Source: an uncultured Dehalococcoidales bacterium
GTDB lineage: Bacteria > Chloroflexota > Dehalococcoidia > Dehalococcoidales > E44-bin46
DNA: 64,000 nucleotides
Reading direction: 5' to 3'
Assembly (NCBI GenBank): GCA_964627215.1
Contig: CAZVIZ010000001.1
Location: 145,395-209,394 of the forward strand
Shown: positions 13,248 through 42,043 of the stretch, piece after piece
Numbering within the stretch: position 1 is the first letter of the stretch
How the letters are laid out: the number at the start of each line of letters is the position of its first letter
The notes under the pieces: model-generated
Told to the model about the DNA's origin: nothing
Databases searched by the model: none
What the model saw: only the letters and a program-made list of their open reading frames with translations
Program-made: the position numbers and the translations under genes

Positions 13248-13254
13248 GTAAGCT
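13224..13254 (+). repeat. direct repeat copy 1 (native dnaN 3' end plus stop), att-like
   Basis: ATGCCCATGTTCGTTCAGTGGTGAGTAAGCT recurs at 16951-16975 (24/25) and 17144-17169 (22/26). Confidence 0.8.
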
Positions 13255-13338
13255 CGACGAATCCCCTGATGATTCCGTGGACATAGATTCCAGCGGTATG
13301 ATGCTTGACTTTACAGGTATCTATCAAACGGGCACTAG

Positions 13339-14121
13339 TTAATCCGGAATTACTATTATCGGTTTCCCATTCGGTCCGATTACAGAATTTCCCTCTCCAT
13401 CTAAGACAGCCCGACCTAGTATCGGGGCTCCATCTTCATCTACAAGAGGATTGCCCGTTGGGTTCATCACAGGTTGTGGCTCGCCGAATTGTGTATCATC
13501 ACGGAATGTTTCCGATGGTGATAGCTCATCATCTTGCATCTCAGAGCGTGGTATTCCTCCTGGTGGAGTCGGATCCTGGGTTGGGTCATCTTGCCTATCA
13601 GGGCGAGGAGTATACGCGAATCTTTCATTGTCGGGTCCAGACGTGAATCCTGGACCGAGTTCAAGAAAATACGTCACGGGGGGGGATATCCATCCTTCGT
13701 CAGTATCAGTAAAATATATCGGCTCGCCTTCAGGATACTCACTATAATCGAGGACCGGTTCTCCCGTTTCATAAAAGAGTTGTCGACCCAGCACCGGGTA
13801 TCCATCTGCGGTTACAATAATATCACCATTGAAATCTCTAACATTCTGCACATCGCCTAATTCTTGACCCTCAGGGACTTCTATTTGCAAGAAAGAATCA
13901 CTATACTTATAATCATCATACTCATAACGATCATCATCTCCGCCATTACCGCCATCATCTCCGCCATGGTCACCATCTCCGCCATTACCGCCATCATCTC
14001 CGCCATGGTCACCACCTCCGCCATTACCGCCATCACCAGGAATATAGGCCAATGTTGGGGAAGACAAGGCTATAATAAAGATCAATGATAGTATTAGCGA
14101 AAAAGCTAATTTCATTTTCAT
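13339..14121 (-). CDS. secreted acidic Gly/Asp-repeat protein, function unknown
   Basis: 260 aa. It has an N-terminal signal peptide (MKMKLAFSLILSLIFIIALSSPTLA), then GDHGGDDGGNGGD repeats. The gene is AT-rich. Confidence 0.6.
   Translation of the reverse strand: MKMKLAFSLILSLIFIIALSSPTLAYIPGDGGNGGGGDHGGDDGGNGGDGDHGGDDGGNGGDDDRYEYDDYKYSDSFLQIEVPEGQELGDVQNVRDFNGDIIVTADGYPVLGRQLFYETGEPVLDYSEYPEGEPIYFTDTDEGWISPPVTYFLELGPGFTSGPDNERFAYTPRPDRQDDPTQDPTPPGGIPRSEMQDDELSPSETFRDDTQFGEPQPVMNPTGNPLVDEDGAPILGRAVLDGEGNSVIGPNGKPIIVIPD
13935..14037. repeat. 39-bp in-frame tandem repeat (2 full units plus a partial one)
   Basis: CATCTCCGCCATTACCGCCATCATCTCCGCCATGGTCAC occurs at 13935-13973 and identically at 13974-14012, with a partial variant to 14037. 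It encodes GDHGGDDGGNGGD on the minus strand. Confidence 0.9.
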
Positions 14122-14161
14122 AAGTATATTTTACCCCCTCTACAAAAGTAGACTCTAATGG

Positions 14162-14725
14162 CTATTTCTCCCCAAACCAACTAATGGTTTCCAGTTTATT
14201 AAGCAGATGTACCCCCACCTGCTCAAGTGCTTCCTTACGAGATTTACCGGCATCACTCCAACTCTCGTACTGGGACAGGGTCCAAATATTATCTTTCGGC
14301 AAAGAATCAACTAGTGTAGTGTAATCATAATGGGTCGTGTAATAGACATCGAAAGCTGCCTGAGAGTTTGTATCGTCAATGGCTGCAATGAGACTAACCA
14401 GTTGAGAATTAAACGCGGCTACGTCATCGAAATTATAAGCACCGGTTCCATAATAGTAATCGTACCAAAGTAAGTAAGCAGTAATCGCGGACAGTTCTTC
14501 ATTCAGTTTGGTAGAATTATTGAGCGAGTTCTCAAGTTCTCCATTGGTTTTGGTCAAATCCTCAACTCGGGTGTTGAGTTCTTCCAGTTGCTGTTGGGAA
14601 GAGGTTAATTCAGACGTTAATTGGTCGTGTTGCTCCTGAGGGATTCCGGATGAACAACCTGACAAAGCCAGCACCATAATCATTAATGGTAGATAGATTG
14701 CGAAGTACTTCATTTTTGTTGTCAC
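14162..14725 (-). CDS. lipoprotein with coiled-coil segment, function unknown
   Basis: 187 aa with lipobox LALSGC after a hydrophobic N-terminus, and a Q/E/L-rich heptad-like stretch. Confidence 0.6.
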   Translation of the reverse strand: MTTKMKYFAIYLPLMIMVLALSGCSSGIPQEQHDQLTSELTSSQQQLEELNTRVEDLTKTNGELENSLNNSTKLNEELSAITAYLLWYDYYYGTGAYNFDDVAAFNSQLVSLIAAIDDTNSQAAFDVYYTTHYDYTTLVDSLPKDNIWTLSQYESWSDAGKSRKEALEQVGVHLLNKLETISWFGEK

Positions 14726-14833
14726 GATAACATACTCCTATACCAGAGTATTCGCACTTTACTAAAAAAAAACGCCATTAGTCAAGAATTTAGTAACAGC
14801 TTGTATCATGCAGTGTGCAAAAAGTCCGAAATA

Positions 14834-14947
14834 TCACATTTTGACGGAGTGCTCCTCCAGGTAGGGCAGCATGACATTGCGGACGCCGGGGTCAATCGGG
14901 GTGGTAGCATTGTAGTCAAGGTATATCGGCTTCTCACTGGGTTTCAT
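14834..14947 (-). pseudogene. 5' stub of a cysteine desulfurase (NifS/IscS-like) gene
   Basis: Own translation: MKPSEKPIYLDYNATTPIDPGVRNVMLPYLEEHSVKM*. IYLDYNATTP...V...M.PYL is the conserved class V aminotransferase N-terminus. Only 37 codons remain, and the GC-rich patch ends where AT-rich DNA begins. Confidence 0.65.
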
Positions 14948-14963
14948 TGATGGTGCTATCTTA

Positions 14964-15683
14964 TCAGTGTTCCTCTACTTTCGATATGAACATGCCGTGC
15001 CATGTATGATACCAGACGTCTCCTGAGTAGCCATTTATGCTCAGCATGCCATAGTGCTCATCTTCAAGCTTGGCCATTATGGTATAGTAGCCGTAGTAGG
15101 CGACAATCTCGTCAGCCTCGGCGCCGGGGTATGCCACGTCCAGAAAGCCCTGAGCGAGTTCCAGGGCCCTTTCCGGGGTAACTGCCATCTGAGCCTGCTG
15201 AGAGCTGCCCATCATGCCGTACTTGCTGTTCCACATCATGCTCTGGGGCTCGACTTGGAGGCTGCCACTATATCTGTCGATGATGGTCTCAATGGCTCCT
15301 CTGGCGGTGCTCTTCTCAATTAGGGACACGTAGAAGTTGTGGGAGTACTCCTCGAACTCATCGATTCTAAGGTCCGGGTTGTTCAGGGATGCCAAATAGT
15401 CATTTGCTATATCCTTAGCATCGTCATGAGAGAGCGGGACGAGAGCTCCAGAGTAGTATCCCATCATACCCCTCATCCCAGGCATGCCACTCATCATTCC
15501 CGATCCCGTCATACTTGACCCCATCATACCGCCGGAGCCCATCATGCCACCTGGGCTCATCATCCCGCCACCCTGCTGTGGCTGCTGGTAAGACGGCGTT
15601 GCAGGCTGAGTGGTGACACAGGAAGTAAGCACTAGTGGGACTAGTATCACTAGTAGAATACCTAACGTGTATAACCTCCTCAT
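14964..15683 (-). CDS. Met/Gly-rich lipoprotein (possible soft-metal binding), function unknown
   Basis: 239 aa with lipobox LVLTSC, then GGGMMSPGGMMGSGGMMGSSMTGSGMMSGMPGMRGMMG, then a globular C-terminal domain. Confidence 0.6.
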   Translation of the reverse strand: MRRLYTLGILLVILVPLVLTSCVTTQPATPSYQQPQQGGGMMSPGGMMGSGGMMGSSMTGSGMMSGMPGMRGMMGYYSGALVPLSHDDAKDIANDYLASLNNPDLRIDEFEEYSHNFYVSLIEKSTARGAIETIIDRYSGSLQVEPQSMMWNSKYGMMGSSQQAQMAVTPERALELAQGFLDVAYPGAEADEIVAYYGYYTIMAKLEDEHYGMLSINGYSGDVWYHTWHGMFISKVEEH

Positions 15684-15719
15684 CCCTGACCTCCAACCAT
15701 GAGTTGTCTTTCACGAATA

Positions 15720-16058
15720 TTAAACCATGTCCTTCTTCTTCTCTTCGTACTCCTGCTTATCTATCTCACCTCGGGCATATCTCTTTTTGAGCATTTCCAG
15801 AGGCGAGTCTGCTTTTAAGGAGTGAGAACCCCTTGACTCACCTAAACCGTGGACCAGAGCCACTACAGCCCATATGATAAGCCCCCAGAAAACCGGCATT
15901 AGCCACATCCCCCCGAAGCCGCCCATCATCCAGGGCCCCGTCATTCCGTATCCGTAGCATGGCCAACCCGGAATTGCTCCAAAAACCAGGGGTAAGACAA
16001 CAATGATGACTACCGCTATGCTACCGACAATAATGGCAGTCTTAATATTTTTATTCAT
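15720..16058 (-). CDS. SHOCT-domain membrane protein
   Basis: 112 aa with two hydrophobic segments containing M/G/W-rich loops. The C-terminal LEMLKKRYARGEIDKQEYEEKKKDM matches the SHOCT motif. Confidence 0.7.
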   Translation of the reverse strand: MNKNIKTAIIVGSIAVVIIVVLPLVFGAIPGWPCYGYGMTGPWMMGGFGGMWLMPVFWGLIIWAVVALVHGLGESRGSHSLKADSPLEMLKKRYARGEIDKQEYEEKKKDMV

Positions 16059-16169
16059 TCTGTCCCCCGCTTATCTATAATGATAGTGGAAGCATCGTTC
16101 TGGGATTCCAAACTCTTCAGCTTATGCCTGTCCTTTGGCAAGTGATACTCACCTTAACCGGTAATCGTT

Positions 16170-16496
16170 TTAGCCGAAAGTCACCACCTTGTCCGACTCG
16201 TCAATCATCTCCACCAATTGCGACATGGTAGAGATGGGACATACCCCAGCCTCCTTGTTCCTGGATTTGAGACAGGTGCCGCAGGCCAAAAGCCTGCCTT
16301 CGTGATTCAGGAACTGTGTTAGACCCTCAGCAACATTGAACTTCTTGTCCTTGACGTTCTCTATCTCCACACCGCTCCCCAAGAGAAACACGCTGGTTTC
16401 ATGACCATCAGCCAGAGCTTTGTTGCCCAAGCGCAGTGCATTCCAGGCGGTCTCAGGGTCGTTGCTGTTTAAGATGATGCCAAGCTTCATTACCAT
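16170..16496 (-). CDS. DsrE/DsrF-like sulfur-relay family protein
   Basis: 108 aa: MKLGIILNSNDPETAWNALRLGN...LLACGTCLK, matching the DsrE-like fold pattern. Confidence 0.55.
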   Translation of the reverse strand: MVMKLGIILNSNDPETAWNALRLGNKALADGHETSVFLLGSGVEIENVKDKKFNVAEGLTQFLNHEGRLLACGTCLKSRNKEAGVCPISTMSQLVEMIDESDKVVTFG

Positions 16497-16511
16497 ACCT
16501 CCTGACTAGTT

Positions 16512-16832
16512 TCATTTATCCCGAATAAGGGCTGCATCCTGTCTGATTTGCTCGAACAGTATTTCCCGCAATAAATCAAAGGCCTCAAGGAGGCGAGGAT
16601 TGGCTACTCGATAATAGACCACATTTCCCTCCTTCCTTGAGACGAGGATGCGGCGCTCCCTCATCATGGCCAGGTGCTGGGATAAATTGGCCACGGCCAG
16701 CCCCAGCCTCTGGGACAGATCGGTTACACTCATCTCTTCATCGCGGAGAATGTTAATGAGCTGCAGTCGTTTAGGGTGAGAGAACACCTTACACATCTCG
16801 GCGTGGTAGGAATAGATCTGGTCTTCTTCCAC
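16512..16832 (-). CDS. ArsR/SmtB family transcriptional regulator
   Basis: 106 aa: FSHPKRLQLINILRDEEMSVTDLSQRLGLAVANLSQHLAMMRERRILVSRKEGNVVYYRV (winged HTH). GTG start lies 7 nt after AGGAGG. Confidence 0.85.
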   Translation of the reverse strand: MEEDQIYSYHAEMCKVFSHPKRLQLINILRDEEMSVTDLSQRLGLAVANLSQHLAMMRERRILVSRKEGNVVYYRVANPRLLEAFDLLREILFEQIRQDAALIRDK

Positions 16833-16861
16833 TTATACCTCCTGTATGCGTAAATAAATAC

Positions 16862-16877
16862 TTTAGAAACTTCTAAA
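16862..16877. promoter_or_regulatory. candidate ArsR operator palindrome TTTAGAA-AC-TTCTAAA
   Basis: Perfect 7-2-7 inverted repeat 30-45 bp upstream of the arsR-like start. It sits just downstream of a minus-strand TATAAT. Confidence 0.45.
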
Positions 16878-16950
16878 ATACTATATAATTATAATAGCTG
16901 ACACCTTTTTCCATGTCAACCCCCGTGGTCGGATATTTTGGGGGTACATA

Positions 16951-16975
16951 ATGTTCGTCCAGTGGTGAGTAAGCT
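16951..16975 (+). repeat. direct repeat copy 2 of the dnaN 3' end
   Basis: ATGTTCGTCCAGTGGTGAGTAAGCT matches dnaN 13230-13254 at 24/25 positions. The single difference is a synonymous third-codon position. Confidence 0.8.
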
Positions 16976-17143
16976 TTAGCGAGCTCGCCGATGCCTCCGT
17001 TTGAGCGGTCTCCAGCGGAATTGCACCCTGGGACCGATTTTCTCTGGCGTGGCTTTCCCTCGCTTGTGCCTTCGGCCGAATTCCGATATAATAGCTTGTG
17101 TGTCCGGTGGTCGGGTTGTACTTACCCGTTTGAATTAACAAAC

Positions 17144-17169
17144 ATGCCTATGTTTGTCCACTGGTGAGT
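17144..17169 (+). repeat. direct repeat copy 3 of the dnaN 3' end (more diverged)
   Basis: ATGCCTATGTTTGTCCACTGGTGAGT matches 13224-13249 at 22/26 positions and reads MPMFVHW*. All four differences fall on third codon positions. Confidence 0.7.
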
Positions 17170-17852
17170 TGTTTTAAGGGTATCGGTTAAGGCGGGCTGG
17201 TGGAGGCGGGGATCTGATGTGGGTGGCCAGGGAAGGGGCGCATAGGATAATCAAGCCCCATCAGGCTGAGCTTCTGTCTGACGACGTGAAAAAAACCTGC
17301 GTGAGATTGTGGAAACTGCCAGGAAAGAGCTTGTATGAGCTTTGATAGGGCCGATGTTTGGGGAACCTGGTGTCGGCGGCATTCAAGAGTTACTGTGAGT
17401 TGAAGGAAATTCAGCTGATTGTGAGCATAATAGGGTCATCGTGTATGTCAGGGTGATATCCGGCCAGTTGGATAGAATCTTGGTCATGGATGGTGGCCGT
17501 AGTGCATTTGATATAGCGGGACAGATTCTCACCAGCGAGATTCAAGACATGGTGCGCATTAACCACGTGGTCTGGGTGCGGACCAGCGATTCGTTGGAAT
17601 CTGTCATGAACCTTGAGAGCGAGGTATGCATCGGCGCGCAGGACGAATCCCCGGCATCTACAAGGGATACCCTTATACATGTAACAGACTTGATAGAGGA
17701 GTTTGACCTGGAGTATAGGAGGTTGAAGGCGGGGTGGGGGATTATGAAAGTGCGGATTTAGTGGCGTTGCAAGATGTGCCGGGATTATAACTTGGATATC
17801 AATTGTCTCCGGCGTGGCCTGCCAATTTGTAGCCTAAGATTGTGGCCGACTC

Positions 17853-17893
17853 CATGCCCTGATGTAAGTGTAAGCGGATTACATCAGGGCATG
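17853..17893. other. perfect 15-bp inverted repeat (hairpin) downstream of ureD
   Basis: CATGCCCTGATGTAA-11 nt-TTACATCAGGGCATG. There is no clear U-tract on either strand. Confidence 0.3.
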
Positions 17894-17969
17894 ATTTAAC
17901 AAACAAGTCAGGATATATCTCCCGCCGCATTTTGGGTGTCAGGAAACCGGGCGAAGTGAAGGGTTACCC

Positions 17970-18881
17970 TTATCTCATGCCTGCCGGAGTTGCGCCGGTT
18001 TGGATAGGTTTTGCTGGCTTGCCAGCAATTGCCGGTCGCGTTACCTCCCACGCACCATAGATTGCTTCATTGATCTGCCAAGTCTCTTGACTTAAAATAC
18101 GTACAACCACCATATTACCTAAGCGGCTTACCCCTATCTCCACACCATCAACAGCTGCGCACTTATCATGTACTGAATCCTCAATTCCCCCCGGCAGATC
18201 GGGAGCATAAGCGAAGACCGTGCCCATATAGTAGGCTCCATTCCAGAGCTGTTTTAGCGCATCTACGTGCCTGCGTTCCTTTGCAACAAGGCGGTCGATG
18301 GCGAACCTTCTGTTATCAATGCTAACCTCGAACGACGATTCCATACTGTCGAACTGGAAGATTTCACCATCTCCATGGTAGATCCGGCCTGCTGTCATCA
18401 GGTCTGTGGCGAAGAGCCTTGAGGATTGATCTATGAAGATCTGAGTGTTCCGTTGGATACGACTCTGACCATAGGGGATAGCCAGACCAGAATGATACTC
18501 GAATAAGGCTCGCGCACCCACGGTCACATTAACAATCTCGCGTGAGGTTTCCCCCCCCAGGCAACCATAGAACTTACTGGCTGATTGAGCGGCTACCAGC
18601 ATCCTGGTATCGGGTTCAAGAACGGCAGTGAATTCAGTGACATCACCTTCCACGAAACCGCCGCTGGTGGTAATCAGGGGGAAAAACGGCTCATCGTCGT
18701 GATCTTGATAATGGTATCCCTGCCACTGATACGGGACACGCCGACTACGAGACTCAATCTCTGTGCGTCCATTTTGCAACCGCGCGTGTATGTTCAGTAA
18801 ACCGTGTTTACCAATATCCCAATCCTCTTTTGGCAAAACGGGTTCGGCCATAATCAACTCCTCAATCGCCTTAGGGTTCAA
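17970..18881 (-). CDS. ureD: urease accessory protein UreD
   Basis: 303 aa at the last position of the urease cluster, overlapping ureG. Length and position fit UreD/UreH. Confidence 0.7.
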
Positions 18882-19482
18882 TTAAAAGCACTTCGCGTTT
18901 GATCCAGCTAATCACTTGGTCAAGTCCTTCGCCGGTCTTCATATTAGTGAAGATAAATGGCTTATCGCCCCTCATATTCTTGGCGTCTCGTTCCATCAGA
19001 GAGAGATCAGCTCCCACATACTGCGCTAGGTCCCTCTTGTTAATGACTAGGAGAGGGGATTTAGTAATGCCAGGGCCGCCTTTCCTGGGGACGTCATCGC
19101 CTCCTGCTACGTCTAGAACATAGATGTGGCTATCCACAAGCTCTGGGCTATAAGTCGCTGCCAGGTTATCGCCCCCACTCTCAACGAATACTATATCAAC
19201 ATCGGGATGTTGGGCAATCATTTCCTCCACCGCATGAAGATTCATAGACACGTCTTCACGGATTGCGGTGTGAGGGCAACCCCCGGTCTCAACTCCACTA
19301 ACGCGGTCGGCAGGCAGCACACCACTTCTTACAACAGCCTGAGCGTCTTCTTTGGTATAAATATCATTGGTGATAGCTGCCACTGAATAAGTTTTCCCCA
19401 TCTCGCGAGCAAGTTGCAAGAGGAGAGCAGTCTTACCCGAGCCTACGGGTCCTGCAATTCCAAGTCTGACTGGTTTACGCAT
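18871..19482 (-). CDS. ureG: urease accessory GTPase UreG
   Basis: [16 protein letters not shown]...[13 protein letters not shown]...ESGGDNL. Confidence 0.95.
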
Positions 19483-19518
19483 TTTTCCTACTCCTTCCAG
19501 GGTTAATAGTAAATATTC

Positions 19519-20247
19519 TCAAGACATACAGAGGCGAGAATACATACGCTCGTGGTGCATAGCCGCAATATCAAGCATCGCTGCGGTAGATCCAAACTCT
19601 TCAGGCTTGAGTGACCGAGCGATTTCCACTGCTTGGGTCAACAGGGGCCAGGAATTGGTAATGATACGCTGTGCTTCTATTTGACCCAGCGGAATCAGAC
19701 GGGCAGCAACCCCTATTAGATTACCGAGAGTAGCCTGAAGGGAAACTAATACTATTTCCGCTTCTGTGATGCCCGCAGCAGCTCCGGCAACTCCGGAAGC
19801 TACGGCCTGATGACCTTCACATTTGCCTTCCTTCACTGCTTTAGCGTAAGGCTCCAACATTCCACCATGATGAAATACCTTCATCACAGTGGTAAGGAAA
19901 GCATGCCCCATCTTATATGAGGATTCCCGAATCTCCCGTGGGAGCTTTAAAGCTCCCACAAGATTGTCAAGCTCAACGATTTGCTCGAGGTCTCCTGCTA
20001 AAGCTGCACGGTGTGCTGTTGCCACCGCTGCCCCGTCCAGCGGAGCTACTCCATAGAGCAACCAGTTAGAGCATAGTTCCTCTAAGCCCTTCGCATCGGA
20101 GATCTCTCCCCTGTCTATTAGTGTTTCGAATCCATATGAGTGATTGAAAGCACCAGTGGGAAACGCTGAGTTGGCAATTTGAAGTAAATAAAGCAGCCCT
20201 TCCTGCCCTTTTTCAACAGGCATGTGACCTCCTATCCATGCAGACAT
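19519..20247 (-). CDS. ureF: urease accessory protein UreF
   Basis: 242 aa: LLQIANSAFPTGAFNHSYGFE, the typical UreF motif. Confidence 0.85.
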   Translation of the reverse strand: MSAWIGGHMPVEKGQEGLLYLLQIANSAFPTGAFNHSYGFETLIDRGEISDAKGLEELCSNWLLYGVAPLDGAAVATAHRAALAGDLEQIVELDNLVGALKLPREIRESSYKMGHAFLTTVMKVFHHGGMLEPYAKAVKEGKCEGHQAVASGVAGAAAGITEAEIVLVSLQATLGNLIGVAARLIPLGQIEAQRIITNSWPLLTQAVEIARSLKPEEFGSTAAMLDIAAMHHERMYSRLCMS

Positions 20248-20711
20248 TAATCGTGATGATGATGGTGGGCGCCATAACGTTTGCCCGTAAAGGGCGTCAC
20301 ACGTTGGACATAAGGAACTTTGAGCCGGTCCAACACGCCTGCAACCCCTGAATCAGCTGGGGTGAGTAACGAATCGTGGTTGAAACGTACAGGGCTGTGC
20401 AAGTTTCCCAGCAGATAGCCGGTCACCCCCCACTCAAGCGCATCTCTTGGACTAACCACAAAGAGATCCTCTGGTGCAGCGGCGATAACGATGGCGATCT
20501 CCCCATCCACTGCTATCACGTCTCCGTCCATGAGTTCAATGCCTCGTGGAATAGAGAGCCGCATATTGCGCCCGCCTTCGGTTTGTCTGACCATGTGGGG
20601 GCTCGACCGCTCCTCTGCGGTTAGCAGGAGGCGGTCGAACCCCTTCACGTTCTCTTTAAAGTCGTCAGCTTTTCCTAGGACCTCTACAACCACACCCTCT
20701 TCACCAATCAT
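20247..20711 (-). CDS. ureE: urease accessory metallochaperone UreE
   Basis: 154 aa with His-rich tail GAHHHHHD, positioned between ureC and ureF. Confidence 0.8.
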   Translation of the reverse strand: MIGEEGVVVEVLGKADDFKENVKGFDRLLLTAEERSSPHMVRQTEGGRNMRLSIPRGIELMDGDVIAVDGEIAIVIAAAPEDLFVVSPRDALEWGVTGYLLGNLHSPVRFNHDSLLTPADSGVAGVLDRLKVPYVQRVTPFTGKRYGAHHHHHD

Positions 20712-20741
20712 ATCCGACTTCCTTTTTATCTAGGCGTCTTC

Positions 20742-22451: not shown

Positions 22452-22501
22452 ATTTGTGCCTCTCTTTCATACTTTAAAAGTTGAAATACCTTCCGGTATA
22501 G

Positions 22502-23005: not shown

Positions 23006-23030
23006 AGCTATCCTCCTTTCGTAATATCTA

Positions 23031-23339
23031 CTATCGTATCGGGTTATATATGGTAACTAACTTCGAGCCTTCGGGGAACTTTACATCGATTTGTAGGATT
23101 TTCATCATCTCCGGCACCGGCTCCATAACGTGATCCTTTGTTAGGATCTTTCCCCCGTATTCCACAAGGTCAACGAGCATCGGAATACTGTTGTCGCGGG
23201 CGCGCTCAAGGACTTCATCACAAATCAGGGCCATGGCTTCGGGGTAGTTCAACTTAACCCCACGCTCAAGCCGCCGCCGAGCCATCTCAGCCGCCGCCCA
23301 AACTTGTATGCGCTCCTCTTCATGGATTGTTAAATGCAT
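23031..23339 (-). CDS. ureA: urease gamma subunit
   Basis: MHLTIHEEERIQVWAAAEMARRRLERGVKLNYPEA. ATG at 23339 is preferred over the track TTG at 23345. Confidence 0.9.
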   Translation of the reverse strand: MHLTIHEEERIQVWAAAEMARRRLERGVKLNYPEAMALICDEVLERARDNSIPMLVDLVEYGGKILTKDHVMEPVPEMMKILQIDVKFPEGSKLVTIYNPIR

Positions 23340-23438
23340 CCCCAACCCCCTTTCTCTTTCTATTAAGAATAAAATCTCTCAACTTCTTTATTGCGCCTAC
23401 CTTCACATAACCCCCCTCCCTTTCTATTGATTATCACT

Positions 23439-23456
23439 GCGCAATATCATTTGCGC
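23439..23456. promoter_or_regulatory. palindrome GCGCAA-N6-TTGCGC upstream of ureA (operator candidate)
   Basis: Perfect 6-6-6 inverted repeat about 100 bp upstream of the ureA start, in the SBP1-ureA spacer. Confidence 0.3.
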
Positions 23457-23500
23457 TTCAAGTAGCTCACAGGGTTTATCCTATTAGTGCCTACTTATGG

Positions 23501-24931
23501 CTACTCTAGCCAAGGAGGCAATACAAACTCCGTTCCTACCTCTTCAATATATTGATGTCGGGGTTGATACCCGTAGTGTTCTAACATATATTCTTCTGTG
23601 GGGTAGTCATATAAGAAGAGTACTATATCCTGCGGGCCGTCTGATGTGACCTGTATCTGGCTGAAGGTCATTGAGGACCCGTAATCTGGTCCCTCCGGAC
23701 GGTTTTCCTTGTCCCACTCCGGCATACCCTCTCTCCACATTGTACGGTCAGTACCGCTCAGCGGCGATATGTTAGTCCCGCTCGGGCCATAAGTCATGCC
23801 TTTCATGTGAGTGTCCATGATGTGATCAATAATTCCGCGATAATCCTTCACATCACCGACAGCTTCAACAGCTTCCGCCCAGAACATAACCTGATCATAG
23901 TTTGAATAAGCCATGCAGAAGCCAGGCCCCTCGCCAAATCTGGCCGTATATCTTTCCCTGTAATCGTACGCCTTGTCGGTTGGATACGGCCCTATGGTGG
24001 TTTGCCAAAGCAAGCCCACAGCTTGTTCCCCCAGCATTTTCCGCAATTCAGGTGTAGTCGGAGCATACTGGATAACAATCAGCGAATCGGTCGGGTCTTC
24101 AAGGAATTGCCTTACGAAAGCGGCTGATTCGGGAACAAACGCGGTGTTGAAAAAGATGAACCCTGGGTTTGCCTCCCTGATCTTGGCTAGCTGTATCCCA
24201 AATTCCGGAACACCACTGCCGACGTCCATGCTCCTGAATGGGTGAACTTCATCTATCACTAATTCCCACTCGGGGTCCGCTTCTATCAAATCTCTTAGAA
24301 CGCCCGAAATCTCCAAGTTGTAGGTTACCTGTGCCGTTAAGATTGCTGCCGTTTTGCTTGGATAATCATATTCCTCCGCAATCTTCTCAGTCATAATCTC
24401 ATAAACATTTGGGCCATACATTACTGCGGTGTCGTCCAGCTGCAATATGTTCCAGTACTTATCTGGGTTCGACGCCCACATTTCAGCAAACAGTTCTGTA
24501 GTACCCACATGAAGATAGGGAATGCCGCCGGTCTCCTCCGCGGCGAAAATATCCATGAAGGCGGGATCGAAGCCATAACCCGGGAAGAAGGCATCTACCT
24601 CCTTTTGTAGCAGGTAGTCACGAGCCGCGATCTGGTCCTGCGCCCCCCAGTTCACCACATCACGGATAAAGATTTCTACGCGTCTCCCCAGTAACCCACC
24701 CCTAGCGTTTATCTCTTCAACCGCCATGGTCATTCCGCGTTCCATCTCTATCGCATCAGGCCCTGGCACCCCGCTGAGAGGCAAGGGCGCGCCTATTCTT
24801 ATCGGTTCTATCTCCTCTGGTGTTGGAGTTGGGGCAGCACAGCCATTTAGCAATGGCACACTTGTTAGCAGTACCGCTGCTAAGCTTATACCGACAATCG
24901 CTTTAAACTTTAACAATTTAGATTTACCCAT
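23501..24931 (-). CDS. ABC transporter substrate-binding lipoprotein, Liv/Urt (HAAT) type, paralog 1
   Basis: Lipobox LLNGC. It is very similar to the 28515-29993 product (shared blocks such as DPAFMDIFAAEETGGIPYLH and ELFAEMWASNPDKYWNILQ). The internal ATG at 24931 avoids overlap with the ATPase gene. Confidence 0.75.
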   Translation of the reverse strand: MGKSKLLKFKAIVGISLAAVLLTSVPLLNGCAAPTPTPEEIEPIRIGAPLPLSGVPGPDAIEMERGMTMAVEEINARGGLLGRRVEIFIRDVVNWGAQDQIAARDYLLQKEVDAFFPGYGFDPAFMDIFAAEETGGIPYLHVGTTELFAEMWASNPDKYWNILQLDDTAVMYGPNVYEIMTEKIAEEYDYPSKTAAILTAQVTYNLEISGVLRDLIEADPEWELVIDEVHPFRSMDVGSGVPEFGIQLAKIREANPGFIFFNTAFVPESAAFVRQFLEDPTDSLIVIQYAPTTPELRKMLGEQAVGLLWQTTIGPYPTDKAYDYRERYTARFGEGPGFCMAYSNYDQVMFWAEAVEAVGDVKDYRGIIDHIMDTHMKGMTYGPSGTNISPLSGTDRTMWREGMPEWDKENRPEGPDYGSSMTFSQIQVTSDGPQDIVLFLYDYPTEEYMLEHYGYQPRHQYIEEVGTEFVLPPWLE

Positions 24932-24932
24932 T

Positions 24933-25637
24933 TTATATCCCCAAGAACACGGCTTTGACATGCTCATTTTGCATGACCTCTTCCGTGGTCCCATGGAATA
25001 CTATCCGGCCGTCTTCTACCAAGTAGACCTTGTCTGTATATTCTGAGGCTTCGGTAATATCTTGCTCCACCATAAGCACGGTAATCCCGGTCTTATTGAT
25101 AGTGGCGATTGTCTTAAACACCTCTTCTCTAAGAAAGGGAGCTAAACCCAGTGATGGTTCGTCTATCGCCAGCAGTTTGGCGTTGGACATCAAACCTCGC
25201 CCGAGAGCCAGCATACGAGCCTCTCCACCGCTTAACTGCTCAGCCAGATGCGAAATCCGCTCTTTCAATCTTGGGAACATTTCGAGGACGTATTCGATAT
25301 TCTCAGCCATCTTAGCTCTAGCATGTACGTTATAGGCGCCCAATTCCAGATTATCCATGACGCTCATTTTCGGGAAAAGATGCCTGTCCTCGGCGATATA
25401 CACTAAACCCATCTCGACTAGCTTGAGAGCCCCCAGGTTAGTAATATCTTTTCCGTCAAAATTTATTGAGCCTGAGGTCGATGGATGTAGGCCGCAGATA
25501 GTCTTAAGCAGGGTGCTTTTACCATGACCATTCGGCCCGAAAACAACCACCAACTCACCCTCGGCTACCTCAAGAGAAATATCGTGTAATGCCCGGAATT
25601 GTCCGTAGTAACTATTCAGGTCTTTTACTTTAAGCAT
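24933..25637 (-). CDS. ABC transporter ATP-binding protein (LivF/UrtE-like)
   Basis: Walker A GPNGHGKST, signature LSGGE, Walker B LLAIDEP. Confidence 0.9.
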   Translation of the reverse strand: MLKVKDLNSYYGQFRALHDISLEVAEGELVVVFGPNGHGKSTLLKTICGLHPSTSGSINFDGKDITNLGALKLVEMGLVYIAEDRHLFPKMSVMDNLELGAYNVHARAKMAENIEYVLEMFPRLKERISHLAEQLSGGEARMLALGRGLMSNAKLLAIDEPSLGLAPFLREEVFKTIATINKTGITVLMVEQDITEASEYTDKVYLVEDGRIVFHGTTEEVMQNEHVKAVFLGI

Positions 25638-26352
25638 GTTTGCCCCTCCCTAGATAAACTTCTATGACCTTCTCCATGCTGCAAACCTCATCCGGAGGAC
25701 CAATAGCAATCTTGACACCGTTTTCTAGAATCATGAGTCTATTAGCCAGCCGCGTGAGCACCTTCATCAGGTGCTCAATTATTATGATGGTCATACCCAG
25801 TTCAGTATTTACCTTTTCAACTAGAGAAACAAACTGTCCAACCTCTGTCGGGCTTAGCCCACCTATGGGTTCATCTAACAGCAGTAACTTTGGTTTTGTG
25901 GCCAGAGCCGCTGCTAACATGGTCAGCTTTTTATCGTAGAGATTGAGGTTGTCAGCGATAACCTCCTCTTTCCCTTCTAACCCCACAAACTTGATCGCCT
26001 CCCTAATATTCTCATACTTTTCTTCTTTTCCCACGTTGCCGAAATGTGCGCCAACCTCTACATTAGCGTGCACCGGCAGGGTAGAGAAAAGCTGAGGGAT
26101 TTGAAGAGTTCCTGCAACACCCCTGTGACAGACTTGATGCGTTTTAAGCTTCATAATGTGTTCATTATCAAAGATAATGTCCCCTGAGCCCTTGTAGACT
26201 CTGGAGATTACATTAAACAAAGTGGTTTTTCCCGCACCATTTGGCCCGGCAACGCCAAGCACCTCCCCTTTTTCTAACTCAAAGTCGAGGTCGCTAATCA
26301 CTTTTAATGAACCAAATTGCTGGGTTACTTTCTCACATTTAAGAAGGGACAT
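25630..26352 (-). CDS. ABC transporter ATP-binding protein (LivG/UrtD-like)
   Basis: GPNGAGKTT...LLLLDEP...IIEH. Confidence 0.9.
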   Translation of the reverse strand: MSLLKCEKVTQQFGSLKVISDLDFELEKGEVLGVAGPNGAGKTTLFNVISRVYKGSGDIIFDNEHIMKLKTHQVCHRGVAGTLQIPQLFSTLPVHANVEVGAHFGNVGKEEKYENIREAIKFVGLEGKEEVIADNLNLYDKKLTMLAAALATKPKLLLLDEPIGGLSPTEVGQFVSLVEKVNTELGMTIIIIEHLMKVLTRLANRLMILENGVKIAIGPPDEVCSMEKVIEVYLGRGKHA

Positions 26353-26411
26353 ATTTATTCCTCTTGTTGGGCAAATATAGTTTTATACTCATATATCGTC
26401 CATTCCATACG

Positions 26412-27416
26412 TCATGCCGTAGGCGAGTCACTCACCTTTTTAGATGTCCTGCCCGTGATGAAACGCTTGGCGACTTCGGGTATTGAAATTAGGCCACCAG
26501 GTAAAGCAATCATTACTGCTACTACTATTGCTCCCAGTATTGTAAGACGTGCCATACCTACCTCCCGCGCAGCATCGTTAAGGAATATGACTACGAACGC
26601 GCCAATCGCTGCTCCGGGGAACCGTGACATACCTCCAAGCATAACCATGACTAGAGCGAAAAGGAAAAACTCAAGTCTAAAGATGCCAGGAGAAATCACG
26701 CCCATGTAATGAACGTAGAAACTGCCTGCCACGCCTGTGATGAAAGCAGCCAGTGCGAACACTATAACCGTGTATTTATACTGGTCTATTCCGAGCTTCT
26801 TTGCGAAGGTTTCAGCATCACGGAGGGCCATGAATGCCAGCCCGATTGGGGAATTGATAATCTTATGTATCGCAAAAATGAATCCAGCGAATAGACCTAA
26901 AGCCGCATAATACCAAGGGATCATATTAAGCTTAGAGAAAACATAGTCTCCAACATTCAGGGGCGCTATGCCAAACAAACCGTAAGTTCCCCCAGTCCCA
27001 ATCGCGTTTCCAGCGACAAATAAGGTTGGCAGGACTAGATGAATGGCGAAGGTGACCATACCTACATAGATTCCTCTAAGTCTAAGGCAGATTACAGCCA
27101 CTACAAGACCGGTGGCTAGTGCTATGCCACCCCCTGCCAGCATTCCCAGCCATGGTGATATTCCCATATGTAAGGTAAGCATGGCCGAAGCGTAACCACC
27201 CAGGGCGAAAAACGCGAGCTGTCCGAAAGACAAGACCCTGGCATATCCCATAATCAGGTCCCATGCGCTAGCTACCACGCCCCAAATGAAGCTCAAGATA
27301 AACAAATGCATTATGTCGCGGTTGCCTCCGATGCCAAGCGGAAGAAGGCATAAAAGTGCTGCTAAACCGATGAAAATATAGGATTTCTTGTTTAATCTCA
27401 ATGCTCTTTTTACCAT
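26412..27416 (-). CDS. ABC transporter permease (LivM/UrtC-like)
   Basis: Polytopic membrane protein. ATG at 27416 overlaps the livH-like stop (ATGGTAA). Confidence 0.85.
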   Translation of the reverse strand: MVKRALRLNKKSYIFIGLAALLCLLPLGIGGNRDIMHLFILSFIWGVVASAWDLIMGYARVLSFGQLAFFALGGYASAMLTLHMGISPWLGMLAGGGIALATGLVVAVICLRLRGIYVGMVTFAIHLVLPTLFVAGNAIGTGGTYGLFGIAPLNVGDYVFSKLNMIPWYYAALGLFAGFIFAIHKIINSPIGLAFMALRDAETFAKKLGIDQYKYTVIVFALAAFITGVAGSFYVHYMGVISPGIFRLEFFLFALVMVMLGGMSRFPGAAIGAFVVIFLNDAAREVGMARLTILGAIVVAVMIALPGGLISIPEVAKRFITGRTSKKVSDSPTA

Positions 27417-28282
27417 GTTCCAAACAGTCCTCTCGGCCTCAGCGCTAATACTACGAACAATATCACCAAGAAGATAGGCAGCGCCCATAGAGCGCCGATT
27501 TGATATGTAACAAACGCCTCTACTATCGCCAAGGTGAAGGCAGCGACGATGGTCCCTTTAATACTGCCTAAGCCGCCAAATACTACAACTACCATTGCCT
27601 TGACAAGAACAGGCCAACCTACATAGGAATATAGCTGGGTTCTTGGAGCGAGAAGCATACCGCTGATACCAGCCAGGGCTGTTGTTAAAGCAAATGTATA
27701 GCCAAATACCTTAGGTGATGGTATCCCGACAATGGCTGCCCCTATCGAATCTTGGGCAACCCCTTGCATAGCCTTCCCGGCTCTGGTTTTCTTCAAGAAC
27801 ATGTTAAGTGCGATCATTGCAGCTATCGCTATAAGCAATATTGCTAGATCATGTTTAGCAAATGAAAACTGACCAAATGTCAAGTTACCCTCAATTAGGT
27901 AGGGCAAGGTTCTGCCTCGCGCGCCAAAGATTACCAGAGATAAGTTATCTAAGAACAAGGCAGAGCCTAAAGTAACGATTATGGCAAGCCATTCCCAGTC
28001 AGGGAAGCGACGCAACGGATTTAGAAGCGCCCTTTCATATGCTAGGCCCATAAAGAACATAATTACGATTGTAATGCCAAAAACCAACGGATAAGGTAGG
28101 TTAAAGTATCCTTTGTGCAAGCTCCAGGCGATGTATCCACCCCAGAGATAGAACGACCCCAGAGCAAAATTGAAGACCCTGGTAATACCGTAAACTAGAG
28201 TTAACCCTAAAGCCATTAAGGCATATATACCACCAAGCGAGATGGCAACTAAAAGTACATCTATGACTTCAGAACCAGACAT
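27410..28282 (-). CDS. ABC transporter permease (LivH/UrtB-like)
   Basis: 290 aa, polytopic: LTLVYGITRVFNFALG. Confidence 0.85.
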   Translation of the reverse strand: MSGSEVIDVLLVAISLGGIYALMALGLTLVYGITRVFNFALGSFYLWGGYIAWSLHKGYFNLPYPLVFGITIVIMFFMGLAYERALLNPLRRFPDWEWLAIIVTLGSALFLDNLSLVIFGARGRTLPYLIEGNLTFGQFSFAKHDLAILLIAIAAMIALNMFLKKTRAGKAMQGVAQDSIGAAIVGIPSPKVFGYTFALTTALAGISGMLLAPRTQLYSYVGWPVLVKAMVVVVFGGLGSIKGTIVAAFTLAIVEAFVTYQIGALWALPIFLVILFVVLALRPRGLFGTW

Positions 28283-28514
28283 AGCTTGTCACCTTTCCCC
28301 TCCGCTTGGGACATGCGCTTCTCTTCTTGTCTGCGTATCCCTTGAAATTTTGCCCCACTGTGGTTCTCTCCCCTATGGGCCGGGCATAAGTGCTTAGTCG
28401 CCGCTTCTTTCTTCCTCTATCCCTTGGTGCCAGGGATAACACGGCAGTACAAACCGTAAGCATAACTAAGCACCTATGCTGCCCTATAAATTTAAGGTTT
28501 CAACCTTGCGAAAC

Positions 28515-29993
28515 TTACTCCAGCCACGGAGGTAGCACGAATTCCGCCCCTACCTCGTCAAGATACTTGTGGAAGGGGTCGACCCCATAGTAAGCCTGCA
28601 TATACTCTTCTGTTGGCATGTCGTAGATGTAGGTTATGACATCTTGAGGACCATCGGAAGTCGCCTTTATCTGACTGAACGTCATGCTGGTTCCGACGTC
28701 CTTGCCTTCTGGCCTGTTTTCTTTATCCCACTCTGTCATACCGTTTCTCCATACTGTCCGATCGGTACCACTCAGAGGAGATACGTTAAGGCCAGCAGGA
28801 CCCTGTGTCATGCCTGCCATGATTACGCGGTCTTCAGTGCCGATAGAAGTGCGCATGAACTGATCGATAATGCCTTCGTAATCCTCTACATCACCGACAG
28901 CTTCGACAGCTTGAGCCCAGAACATGACTGCATCATGCACTGCGTAGGCTTGACAGAAGCCAGGTTCCTCGCCAAAGGTGTCTATATACCTCTCCCTATA
29001 ATCAAATACGGTCTTAGTTGGGGGAGGCCCTTCACTAGTTTGCCAAAGTATGCCGATAGACTGGTCGCCAAGCATCTTCCGGAACTCGACGTTGGATGGA
29101 CAGTAATGGACAACAACTAGTGAATCGGACGGGTTGCTCAGGAACTGTCTTACGAATGCTACCCCTTCAGGAACCACAACGGTGCTGAAGAAGATGAACC
29201 CTGGGTTGTGCTCTCTGATCTTGGATAGCTGAACCCCAAACTCCTGGGTGCCGAACGGGTGCTCTTCGTCTACTACCACTTCCCACTCGGGATCCGCGTT
29301 TATCAGATCCCTTAACCCGGCCGAAATCTCCTGATTATAGGTTATCTGTGATGTCAGGATTGCCACAGTTTTGTTGGGATACTCGTATTCGTTTGGAATT
29401 GCCCTGGTCATGACCTCGTAGACATTCGGGCTATACGTGATGGAGGTGTCGTCAATCTGCAGTATGTTCCAGTACTTGTCCGGATTCGACGCCCACATCT
29501 CCGCAAACAGCTCTGTGGTGCCGTAATGGAGATAGGGAATACCACCGGTCTCCTCTGCGGCGAAAATGTCCATGAAGGCGGGATCTAGTCCGTAACCCGG
29601 CAGGAACAGGTCTACATCCTTTGTAAGCAGGTAGTCGCGAGCCGCAACCTGATCCACCGCTCCCCAATCTACTACGTCAGCGGTGACGTATTCCACAGGC
29701 CTTCCCAGCAAGCCGCCCCTGGCATTGAGGTCCTCAACGCCCAGGCTAAGTCCGCGTTCTATCTCTACGGCATCAGATGCTGGTGCCCCAGTGATAGGCA
29801 AAGGTGCTCCGATTACTATCGGCTCTGGCGGTGCTTCGGTCGGCGGTGCCGTTTCGGTCGGCGGTGCCTCTTCGGTCGGCGGTGCTGCTTCCTGTTTTCC
29901 AGGCAAACAACCGCTAGTAAGAGGTACAATTATCGCCAGCGCTACTATTAGGCTGATGATAAACGCTTGTTTTAGTGCTAGTCTTCTCTTCAT
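28515..29993 (-). CDS. ABC transporter substrate-binding lipoprotein, Liv/Urt (HAAT) type, paralog 2
   Basis: Lipobox LTSGC followed by a Pro/Glu/Thr/Ala-rich linker. Paralog of 23501-24931. Confidence 0.75.
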   Translation of the reverse strand: MKRRLALKQAFIISLIVALAIIVPLTSGCLPGKQEAAPPTEEAPPTETAPPTEAPPEPIVIGAPLPITGAPASDAVEIERGLSLGVEDLNARGGLLGRPVEYVTADVVDWGAVDQVAARDYLLTKDVDLFLPGYGLDPAFMDIFAAEETGGIPYLHYGTTELFAEMWASNPDKYWNILQIDDTSITYSPNVYEVMTRAIPNEYEYPNKTVAILTSQITYNQEISAGLRDLINADPEWEVVVDEEHPFGTQEFGVQLSKIREHNPGFIFFSTVVVPEGVAFVRQFLSNPSDSLVVVHYCPSNVEFRKMLGDQSIGILWQTSEGPPPTKTVFDYRERYIDTFGEEPGFCQAYAVHDAVMFWAQAVEAVGDVEDYEGIIDQFMRTSIGTEDRVIMAGMTQGPAGLNVSPLSGTDRTVWRNGMTEWDKENRPEGKDVGTSMTFSQIKATSDGPQDVITYIYDMPTEEYMQAYYGVDPFHKYLDEVGAEFVLPPWLE

Positions 29994-30175
29994 CTAAACC
30001 CTCTAAAACCCCCTCTCAACTTCCTAATTTTATAACACACATCAATTATTACTCACTTTATATATGTTTTGTTCACTCCATATAGTGTCTCCTTTCTATT
30101 TTCTTTCTATTACGCAAAATTCCGGAATTCATTGCCTCGAATTCTCGGCTAAAAAGTCTATTCATTCTGTTTACC

Positions 30176-30206
30176 GTTGTTGGGGGGAGCGCCACCCCCC
30201 AACAAC
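30176..30206. other. perfect 12-bp inverted repeat GTTGTTGGGGGG-7 nt-CCCCCCAACAAC
   Basis: Read directly. It is followed by A7 on the plus strand and preceded by T7 on the minus strand. Confidence 0.5.
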
Positions 30207-30502
30207 AAAAAAACTAGAAGGAGGGATTGGGTTTGCTGATACGGTTCGGTTGCTCAACCGTAATCACCCAAGGCCTCCAGCTATTGGGTCAACTATATTT
30301 GTGTTATGGCTTTTTAGCATACCGAAGGACTATCCTTCTGCTTGCTTGTTTTTCCCTCCAGGACGCACCAAATCCGTCCGCCAAGCGTTTTGCCTCACAA
30401 AACGACCCTGAGACACACCGCAACGCAGCATTTGGATTGACCCCAGAACTTCCGAGTTTATTCACCATTCGCTTAAGCGAGATTAATCAATTACTGAAAT
30501 CT

Positions 30503-30752
30503 ATCACTCAGCAACAATCCTGTCAACCTAATGTCTAATAATGTCAACCCCTTATATGGGGGAAAACGAGCCCTAAAATCAGCTAAATTGTTTGAAATTT
30601 ATCACTCAGCAACAATCCTGTCAACCTAATGTCTAATAATGTCAACCCCTTATATGGGGGAAAACGAGCCCTAAAATCAGCTAAATTGTTTGAAATTTAT
30701 CACTTAATAATATTCTTGTCAAGTCTTCTGTTAATAATGCCAACCCCATAAT
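30503..30752. repeat. 98-bp tandem repeat: two identical units plus a degenerate third
   Basis: 30503-30600 and 30601-30698 are identical as read. 30699-30752 is a diverged partial unit. Each unit contains TGTCAAC twice (TTGACA on the minus strand). Confidence 0.9.
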
Positions 30753-30816
30753 GGCGTGGGTGGCAGTTTGTCAATGGGCTGGGGTGGTAAGTGTGAGCTT
30801 AGCTTACGTCCTTTGA

Positions 30817-31563: not shown

Positions 31564-31587
31564 TTCGCTTAAAAGCCTAGCAATAGG

Positions 31588-31627
31588 GGGCTGGTCGTCC
31601 GCTCAAGACGGATGACCAGCCCTTTTT
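31588..31627 (+). terminator. rho-independent terminator
   Basis: GGGCTGGTCGTCCG-CTCAAGA-CGGATGACCAGCCC (14-bp stem with one G.U pair) followed by TTTTT. Confidence 0.8.
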
Positions 31628-31689
31628 AGCGTTTATAACTACCTCTCCGTCTAATTCTTACGATATGTTCTTTAGAATGCGGGAAAAGA

Positions 31690-32669: not shown

Positions 32670-32707
32670 GTCTTTACCTTCTTAAACTTCCCTAATATAA
32701 TATGGCT

Positions 32708-42039: not shown

Positions 42040-42043
42040 TACT

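Follow-up and report, generated by a model that had tools for sequence, protein, structure and literature searches.

Genes and synteny downstream of dnaN

The window analysed here is a stretch of 64,000 nucleotides (nt) from an uncultured Dehalococcoidales bacterium (GenBank assembly GCA_964627215.1, contig CAZVIZ010000001.1, positions 145,395 to 209,394), in which dnaN, the gene for the DNA polymerase III beta clamp, is followed by a mosaic of accessory genes. We compared it with 80 dnaN loci of uncultured Dehalococcoidales/Dehalococcoidia, all of them metagenome assemblies; L numbers below denote loci or contigs of relatives and P numbers denote proteins. The argument turns on copies of the dnaN 3' end, treated here as attachment-site (att) copies, and on fragments of a large serine recombinase (LSR) gene beside them:

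12105–13247, plus strand: dnaN (DNA polymerase III beta clamp), intact, 380 amino acids (aa), the proposed integration target gene
13218–13254, plus strand: att copy 1 (attL-like), last dnaN codons ..VVMPMFVQW-stop plus 7 nt; core 13230–13254
13255–13302, minus strand: LSR gene stub 1, last ~16 codons, IIPLESMSTESSGDSS; the following 'SLLTT...' is encoded within att copy 1
16951–16975, plus strand: att copy 2, identical to copy 1 at 24/25 nt; att profile E=2e-4
16976–17053, minus strand: LSR gene stub 2, QGAIPLETAQTEASASS, diverged, with an indel
17138–17174, plus strand: att copy 3 (attR-like), full inverted repeat ACAAACAT-GCCT-ATGTTTGT, decayed dnaN end ..PMFVHW-stop
42044–44265, plus strand: alpha/beta hydrolase gene (42044–42802) and purF (42868–44265), genes that ancestrally followed dnaN, marking where the zone really ends on the right

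The gene order upstream of dnaN, FBPase-GYD-rdgB-(moaA-moaC)-dnaN, is retained in nearly all 80 loci, whose DnaN proteins are 67–80% identical to that of the window. The order 3' of dnaN, in contrast, is kept in 0/80, and none of the relatives has any of the window genes of 13.3–36.8 kilobases (kb) downstream of dnaN. With a conserved upstream order and an unshared downstream one, the dnaN stop codon is a synteny breakpoint throughout the order. The first-pass annotation had read the DNA behind dnaN as an old plasticity zone, a reading at odds with any downstream order shared by distant relatives; such an order is conserved in no relative, and the reading therefore stands on this point.

In the closest relatives dnaN is followed by orthologs of the hydrolase gene and purF, so the inserted zone, as delimited by synteny, runs to 42,043 (13,248–42,043, 28.8 kb). 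The hydrolase gene begins 75 nt 3' of dnaN in L001 and comes after an att copy in L012, while purF in L008 begins 127 nt past the last of two extra att copies; it is between dnaN and the hydrolase/purF genes that the islands of relatives are located. A right end at about 30.8 kb, as first annotated, thus survives as a compositional border but not as the edge of the zone, which lies about 11 kb to the right of it. Of the 52 relatives with enough flanking sequence, 23 have an att copy or a whole or remnant recombinase gene at the dnaN end, and GC content downstream of dnaN averages 5.7 points below that upstream (52 loci with at least 2 kb of downstream sequence).

The region had been judged by eye to be richer in AT than both flanks, and sliding GC, GC at third codon positions (GC3) and tetranucleotide deviation, now computed, all shift. 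In 1-kb windows, GC content is 0.490 (standard deviation 0.023, n=17) inside 13255–30255 and 0.579 (standard deviation 0.022, n=44) in the rest of the stretch (Mann-Whitney p=2e-9). Mean GC3 is 0.525 for 19 genes inside and 0.707 for 13 flanking genes (p=5e-6), and tetranucleotide observed/expected ratios correlate with those of the flanks at 0.49–0.61 inside versus 0.86–0.93 outside. An AT-rich block of this kind might be an assembly chimera, foreign DNA joined at repeats: like all 80 relatives, the source is probably metagenome-assembled (P0001 and P0121 are recorded from one NCBI contig), and the contigs of relatives frequently break just 3' of dnaN, 11 of the 80 ending no more than 300 nt after it. 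We nevertheless hold a chimera to be extremely improbable. A separate assembly, of run SRR8146443 (L081), repeats the junction between dnaN and the first AT-rich gene with an identical DnaN, the block shares one contig with host-like DNA on either side, and its anatomy of att copies and LSR stubs is that found in independent genomes.

Attachment-site copies and recombinase remnants

The 25-nt dnaN end, ATGTTCGTTCAGTGGTGAGTAAGCT (13230–13254), recurs on the same strand at 16951 (24/25 nt) and, more diverged, at 17150, which gives three copies of the dnaN 3' end in the window against 0.01 expected by chance. A profile of the att site matches copy 1 at 13224–13249 (E=2e-7) and finds its best match in the window in copy 3 (E=1e-8), whose left arm fits the distal-copy consensus of 14 relatives. 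In copy 2 the left arm is altered, with ..ACATA before ATGTT where other distal copies have ..ACATCCCN. The target gene itself stays whole: dnaN is full length and ends in MFVQW-stop, and the displaced copies encode MFVQW-stop and PMFVHW-stop.

Distal copies have the form ACA[AG]ACAT-NCCN-ATGTTYGT. Their left arm, ACA[AG]ACAT, is absent from dnaN and only the right arm is common to both; since the left arm is the reverse complement of ATGTTTGT on the right, the site is an inverted repeat around NCCN. This anatomy is that of a recombinase core site, the left arm coming from the element and the right arm being common to element and target, and the core is partly palindromic around its central dinucleotide, the presumed crossover position. 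Among the relatives, a second att copy is found in 14 loci by a strict pattern and more than one in 21 of 78 by profile search (three in L008 and L033), the extra copies lying downstream of dnaN on the same strand except for two weak matches. The duplicated dnaN ends are attachment-site scars.

Very short intervals between att copies were seen twice, 143 nt in L066 (11117–11280) and 199 nt in the window (16951–17174); from their sequence they look like elements reduced to their two ends. Fourth and fifth dnaN-end copies suspected by eye near 17742 and 30772 found no support in the att profile or in a weight-matrix scan.

Copies 1 and 2 are each followed, on the minus strand, by the 3' end of an LSR gene. 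Stub 1 agrees with the LSR gene 3' end of L166 at 40/48 nt (random 48-mers average 12.3, standard deviation 3.1) and encodes IIPLESMSTESSGDSSSLLTT where L166 has VIPLESMPTQSSEDSPSLLTT; its region is 83% identical to L166 over 159 nt by blastn, and 62% identical to the LSR of L002 over 34 aa by tblastn. Positions 16951–17053, which include stub 2, align with L166 at 74% over 104 nt (blastn, E=4e-11). As the LSR reading frame enters the att site, such stubs belong to the right half-site of the element. The layout from left to right is dnaN, att copy 1 with its stub, two AT-rich genes, a nifS stub, an ArsR operon, att copy 2 with its stub, 97 nt, and att copy 3. A third stub candidate, ATPETIDIQVIIP at 17780–17818 on the minus strand, was not significant (E about 8–12), and a recombinase-family profile run over all six frames of the window found no further fragments. 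The first-pass statement that the region has no recombinase, transposase or transfer RNA (tRNA) gene has accordingly to be amended for two recombinase 3' stubs, although no recombinase gene is intact; neither a tRNA nor a transfer-messenger RNA (tmRNA) gene was found in the window, whose repeats derive from the dnaN end and not from ssrA.

In relatives the gene occurs entire. L078 has a 550-aa open reading frame (ORF) on the opposite strand that abuts dnaN and carries Resolvase, Recombinase and Zn_ribbon_recom domains. LSR genes convergent with dnaN and overlapping its end are found in L078, L040, L002, L036 and L031, partial copies or remnants in L005, L029, L048, L060 and L068, and an LSR gene or remnant adjoins dnaN in 13 of the 80 loci when matches of at least 100 aa are counted. 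Among relatives with at least 1.5 kb downstream, the LSR is the only recombinase family that recurs in the first two ORFs after dnaN, the other ORFs being heterogeneous. A protein-side search returned more than 1,500 members of the family, those with names coming from Chloroflexota; three of four homologs on long contigs (66%, 54% and 53% identity) face dnaN in convergent orientation with an overlap of 26 nt, and in one case the host has another gene context upstream of dnaN. Complete elements with two att copies are present in L078 (5.1 kb, GC 0.36 in surroundings of 0.50) and L171 (6.9 kb, GC 0.52 in surroundings of 0.64). The neighbours of the LSR gene vary between loci, and small Resolvase-domain genes lie upstream of it in L168 alone. 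Among solved structures and phage records, the enzyme comes closest to the integrases of SPbeta, TP901-1 and A118, and identity to any phage integrase does not exceed 32%.

If a tyrosine integrase or some other enzyme did the inserting, serine recombinase genes would be no more than frequent cargo. A 229-aa gene of the Phage_integrase family, a small tyrosine recombinase, does adjoin the LSR gene in L002, and an identical direct repeat of 25 nt is typical of tyrosine integrases. However, the LSR frame enters the att site in every case, with its 26-nt overlap of dnaN, and no other recombinase family recurs: a tyrosine recombinase was seen once, against LSR genes or remnants at 13/80 loci. We therefore consider such a division of roles very improbable.

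The end of the LSR frame differs among the relatives. In L002 (~4000–4030) and L036 the recombinase stop TGA is the antisense of dnaN GTC-ATG. In L078 (10983–11137) dnaN has GTA-ATG, and the LSR frame continues for ~50 codons into antisense dnaN. The dnaN of the window (13218–13254) also has GTA-ATG, with an antisense frame open well beyond the att site, so the LSR of an element inserted here would be likewise extended. On this sequence evidence, the C-terminal tail of the LSR would differ between integrated and excised states.

We think it likely that the zone is a decayed accretion zone of mobile elements that inserted into the last codons of dnaN by means of an LSR. The att site of the element would be the imperfect inverted repeat ACAAACAT-CCCN-ATGTTTGT, whose right half mimics the dnaN end (..P MFVQW stop), and the target would be the dnaN end around GTCGTCATGCCNATGTTYGTNCARTGGTRA. 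Crossover, presumably catalysed by the LSR, would probably occur at the CC of the proline codon. Upon insertion, the last codons carried by the element would complete dnaN, and the original end would come to lie beyond the element. The new junction would still be target-like, which would allow later elements to enter at the same point and displace earlier ones to the right. The att pairs of the window would mark two or more such events, whose order we infer. Copy 2 seems to be without the presumed crossover bases, which would lock the first element in place. With the LSR genes deleted, these bases missing from copy 2 and cargo operons truncated, the array appears to be fixed and decaying, and with the recombinase present only as stubs, the region is a decayed non-autonomous relic, not an active member of the family.

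Several observations weigh against this model. At the island edge the window has no intact recombinase ORF, only the 3' stubs at 13255–13302 and 16976–17053, so nothing in it can be taken as mobile today. The atypical left arm of copy 2 could mean another element subfamily and not a deletion. To the right of 17174 the att profile and the recombinase-family profile find no att copy or LSR fragment, and entry of the urease block and the 30.8–42 kb block by the same route is therefore only putative. The tyrosine recombinase gene of L002 also counts here, as does the fourth and closest LSR homolog sampled (P0241, 79%), which stands beside a 38-codon dnaN 3' fragment with no intact dnaN. Exact-protein look-ups yielded no strain with an empty site, only two short contigs arranged as in the window, and no excised circular form was found. 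At the locus of this closest homolog, L166/L167 (7484–7654), the 38-codon dnaN fragment is followed by an aldehyde:ferredoxin oxidoreductase gene, and the element has a Prim-Pol/D5_N primase gene; this arrangement could represent a secondary site, or an element that took along a longer piece of dnaN.

Cargo of the zone and routes of entry

Between and beyond the att copies, the zone contains the following:

13339–14121, minus strand: secreted Gly/Asp-rich repeat protein gene, AT-rich (GC3 0.34), no Pfam match
14162–14725, minus strand: lipoprotein gene, AT-rich (GC 0.42), Pfam matches all sub-threshold
14834–14947, minus strand: N-terminal stub of a cysteine desulfurase (nifS-like) gene, 37 codons, translation MKPSEKPIYLDYNATTPIDPGV; truncated fifth gene of the ArsR operon
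14964–16832, minus strand: ArsR operon fragment with ArsR (16512–16832), a DsrE-like gene (16170–16496) and, in 14964–16058, a SHOCT membrane protein (15720–16058) and a Met/Gly-rich lipoprotein (14964–15683)
17175–17969, no strand: apparently non-coding DNA from att copy 3 to ureD, no homolog in related loci, no Rfam match
17970–23345, minus strand: urease cluster ureA-B-C-E-F-G-D, seven ORFs, right to left
23501–29993, minus strand: ATP-binding cassette (ABC) transporter of the branched-chain amino acid/urea type, with two binding proteins, two ATPases and two permeases
29994–30816, no strand: AT-rich non-coding stretch including a 98-nt tandem repeat, no Rfam match
30817–31563, plus strand: FrhB/FdhB-like iron-sulfur (Fe-S) gene, 5'-truncated, the compositional right border; 71% identity to P0003 residues 127–355
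31564–42043, no strand: pstSCAB-phoU, two MinD/Mrp-type Fe-S ATPases, NifX-like, DUF134, phoB, phoR and methyltransferase genes, host-like GC

The modular make-up first proposed is borne out, each of the listed modules being found in the sequence. The two AT-rich secreted-protein genes correspond to the ORFs at 13339–14121 and 14162–14725. Within the first of them a 39-nt repeat that encodes a motif of the GGNGGDGDHGGDD type (13931–14035) is present in 2.7 copies at 96% identity, and the independent contig L081 terminates inside this gene. The cysteine desulfurase stub exists as annotated but is not GC-rich, its GC content being 0.44; metagenomic relatives have a full-length nifS in the same place after the lipoprotein gene, and the stub is 76–87% identical to its start. 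ORFs and Pfam domains also agree with an ArsR-regulated operon of four genes, which is a fragment of a five-gene operon that included nifS. This operon is widespread in metagenome contigs (GC 0.46–0.53, ArsR 82–87% identical), and in those contigs no dnaN or recombinase was found near it.

The dnaN-end remnants and apparently non-coding DNA reported further on are likewise real: the extra copies stand at 16951 and 17150, and ~1.1 kb (16833–17969) is without a convincing gene. Apart from the att core, nothing in the non-coding stretches has a homolog in related loci, and Rfam gave only chance-level matches in both. A motif common to 16914 and the 98-nt repeat (TGTCAACCCC..GGGGG) was considered as an att arm and rejected, because its minus strand shows a hairpin with a TTGACA -35 box behind it, as judged by a promoter scan for the repeat and by reading the sequence for 16914; these sites would be the promoter regions of the ArsR and transporter operons.

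Varied cargo also lies in the islands behind dnaN in relatives, including restriction-modification genes (an EcoRI-type methylase with GmrSD/HNH, an Eco57I-type enzyme and an NmeDI-like gene), a tubulin/CetZ-like gene and a MalT/LuxR regulator. The cargo-bearing stretches are:

L018, 11393–13596
L031, 6522–9875
L171, 1492–2610
L055, 11219–12454
L033, 11224–13914

The recombinase-bearing island of L036 (14048–18943) seemingly encodes an Rrf2-type regulator, a ThiF-like enzyme, cysteine desulfurase, cysteine synthase and serine acetyltransferase, names read from the start of each translation only. Sulfur-metabolism cargo would be common to this island and to the first element of the window (DsrE, nifS stub).

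To the right of att copy 3, the annotated urease cluster and ABC transporter are both present (ureDGFECBA at 17970–23345, transporter at 23501–29993). The structural and accessory urease genes are complete, and UreC has the domains PF00449 and PF01979. The collinear genes in L085 match Urease_gamma, Urease_beta, Urease_alpha, UreE, UreF, cobW (in the UreG position) and UreD. Collinearity with L085, whose GC is uniformly 0.41–0.49, extends over a 12-kb transporter-urease block at about 75% nt identity, and the homology stops exactly at the ureD stop codon; the att profile has no match on this urease-bearing contig. The closest named homologs of UreC (68–69%) are alphaproteobacterial, with none from Dehalococcoidia. 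Only one Rfam family passes its threshold in the window, 5_ureB_sRNA (22000–22298, plus strand, 43.5 bits against a cut-off of 40), antisense to the start of ureC; it may merely reflect conserved urease coding sequence and not a real antisense RNA.

The transporter scores below all NCBIfam Urt cut-offs: UrtA-type 26–40 bits against about 493–495, UrtB 150 against 250, UrtC 111 against 296, UrtD 156 against 304 and UrtE 191 against 286. Its superfamily membership stands, and uptake of urea or an amide is suggested only by the linkage to urease. The transporter operon both begins and ends with a substrate-binding protein gene, and these two (23501–24994 and 28515–29993, 69–75% nt identity) are paralogs. 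Because L085 is arranged alike, the duplication is older than the transfer. Upstream, the tandem-repeat array of the first-pass annotation consists of a 98-nt unit in 2.7 copies (30495–30754). Each unit contains a sigma-70-like promoter match on the minus strand (TTGACA, 17 nt, TAAATT/TAGATT, with TG before the second hexamer), 500–760 nt upstream of the transporter-urease genes, and a scan gave 5 sites where 1.6 were expected. The array could represent a promoter in triplicate.

Damage had been reported at both borders, and the duplicated dnaN ends on the left are matched on the right by a truncated Fe-S gene. Its 5' part is missing, and it aligns only to residues 127–355 of homologs of ~355–365 aa (the homologs span 355–379 aa). 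In L083 and L084 this gene is the last of a ~10-gene operon of the Hdr/TusA/DsrE type, the rest of which is absent from the window. This Hdr-like operon was also tried as the ancestral neighbour of dnaN and dropped, being found in 0/80 loci. Behind the Fe-S gene, the genes of 31564–42043 were named by reading their translations, only pstB having been checked against Pfam, through an exact copy in L082. This block has the composition of the flanks, yet it falls within the synteny gap and is absent downstream of dnaN in all relatives.

These right-hand blocks bear on how far the accretion model reaches. Recombinase insertion may account only for the left 3.9 kb (13.25–17.17 kb), the urease-transporter and 30.8–42 kb blocks having come by other routes, for instance homologous recombination after DNA uptake or a rearrangement within the chromosome in which the Fe-S operon was cut as well. 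The DNA right of 17174 has neither an att copy nor an LSR fragment, the 30.8–42 kb block is host-like in GC and tetranucleotide usage, and the truncated Fe-S gene itself records a deletion or rearrangement at 30.8 kb. Against this, att copies delimit the whole interval from dnaN to hydrolase/purF in L008 and L012, a distal att copy could have been lost in the same deletion as the 5' part of the Fe-S operon, and the ssrA arrays of Dehalococcoides have older, att-less parts furthest from the target gene (PMC3146451). We regard so narrow a role for the recombinase as unlikely. Under the accretion model the urease and 30.8–42 kb blocks may have arrived by the same route as the left-hand elements, from donors of similar GC.

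The cargo was probably drawn from different donors, among them that of the 12-kb transporter-urease module, which probably allows the host to use urea. The first-pass view of an old, multiply rearranged plasticity zone, not a single fresh island, is strengthened by three att scars of unequal divergence and by the recombinase stubs, as well as by the truncated nifS and FrhB/FdhB-like Fe-S genes and the differing closest relatives of each module.

A second patch of low GC (0.46–0.50) occupies the first 2 kb of the window and consists of one AT-rich gene (584–1771, minus strand, 395 aa), whose 3' end overlaps the 5' end of a GC-rich gene (1768–3078) by 4 nt. From a sequence motif we read its product as an HD-domain, dNTP-triphosphohydrolase-like protein, and the patch may be a separate small acquisition.

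Related systems and significance

Staphylococcal cassette chromosome (SCC) elements, including SCCmec and pseudo-SCC, are inserted by the LSRs CcrAB/CcrC at the last codons of rlmH/orfX, and the element provides a replacement end; tandem elements are parted by direct repeats, and many are without recombinase genes. The dnaN-end elements resemble SCC in using the last codons of a protein-coding target, in the replacement end, in the direct repeats and in forming recombinase-less composite islands. They differ in phylum, target gene and recombinase clade, and the paired small and large recombinase genes are unseen in most loci here. Phage LSRs (Bxb1, phiC31, A118, SPbeta SprA) share the Resolvase, Recombinase and zinc-ribbon architecture and the short, partly palindromic att sites, whereas the dnaN elements are 5–7 kb where complete, with no phage structural genes seen. 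Primase genes of the Prim-Pol type are found in L166 and L168, and L078 matches Rep_trans weakly; by gene content, the dnaN-end elements would be more like integrative mobilizable elements or satellites.

The nearest parallel within the class is provided by the ssrA islands of Dehalococcoides mccartyi, where a gene for a CcrB-like serine recombinase of ~540 aa sits at attL on the reverse strand (McMurdie et al., 2011; PMC3146451). These islands are low in GC and stand in tandem arrays, with 20-bp copies of the ssrA end between neighbours; the distal repeats are preceded by a conserved motif foreign to ssrA, and many of the islands are without an integration module and may be fixed; a comparison with SCC is drawn in the same study (PMC3146451). 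Both systems belong to Dehalococcoidia and combine low GC with an LSR gene of ~520–550 aa on the reverse strand directly at attL, insertion at the 3' end of a single-copy essential gene, tandem arrays with direct repeats of ~20–25 bp, a motif upstream of the distal repeat that is unlike the target gene, and many islands lacking an integration module. Unlike ssrA, a tmRNA gene, the target here is protein-coding, and the repeat must therefore restore the reading frame (MFVQW stop, the last five codons). The conserved six-gene integration module of the ssrA islands (DsiB, DsiA, RecF-like, ParB-like, Mom-like...) was not found here, and the cargo of the window consists of urease, transporter and metal/sulfur genes, not of reductive dehalogenases.

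No report of integration at dnaN turned up in the paper library that was searched, and dnaN goes unmentioned in PMC3146451 and in another paper on Dehalococcoidia islands. SCCmec and the Dehalococcoides ssrA islands have already made the mechanism familiar; dnaN as its target seems not to have been reported before. A bolder reading, which we consider quite unlikely, is that the LSRs form an undescribed integrase family, order-wide and specific for the dnaN 3' end, in which a change of tail is a possible direction switch. Since the crossover point falls within the LSR reading frame, the recombinase would exchange its C-terminal tail on integration and on excision; in most hosts its stop would be supplied by the antisense of dnaN GTC-ATG, and in hosts with GTA-ATG the frame would continue for ~50 codons into antisense dnaN. 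If this were true, genetics in the Dehalococcoidia, so far intractable, could use the conserved ~40-bp dnaN site as a landing pad.

For a specialist the finding is a moderate surprise; it merits recording for the target and how widely this is used in an environmental order, and for the urease module that was gained. The accretion model would explain a 17–29 kb mosaic by one simple mechanism, make the dnaN end a recurrent insertion hot spot in environmental Dehalococcoidales and account for the frequent assembly breaks right after dnaN in this group, and a defined pair of recombinase and target site is a candidate genetic tool. For the organism itself, the cargo points to the gain of a urease and a linked transporter by a member of the Dehalococcoidales, which probably uses urea as a nitrogen source.

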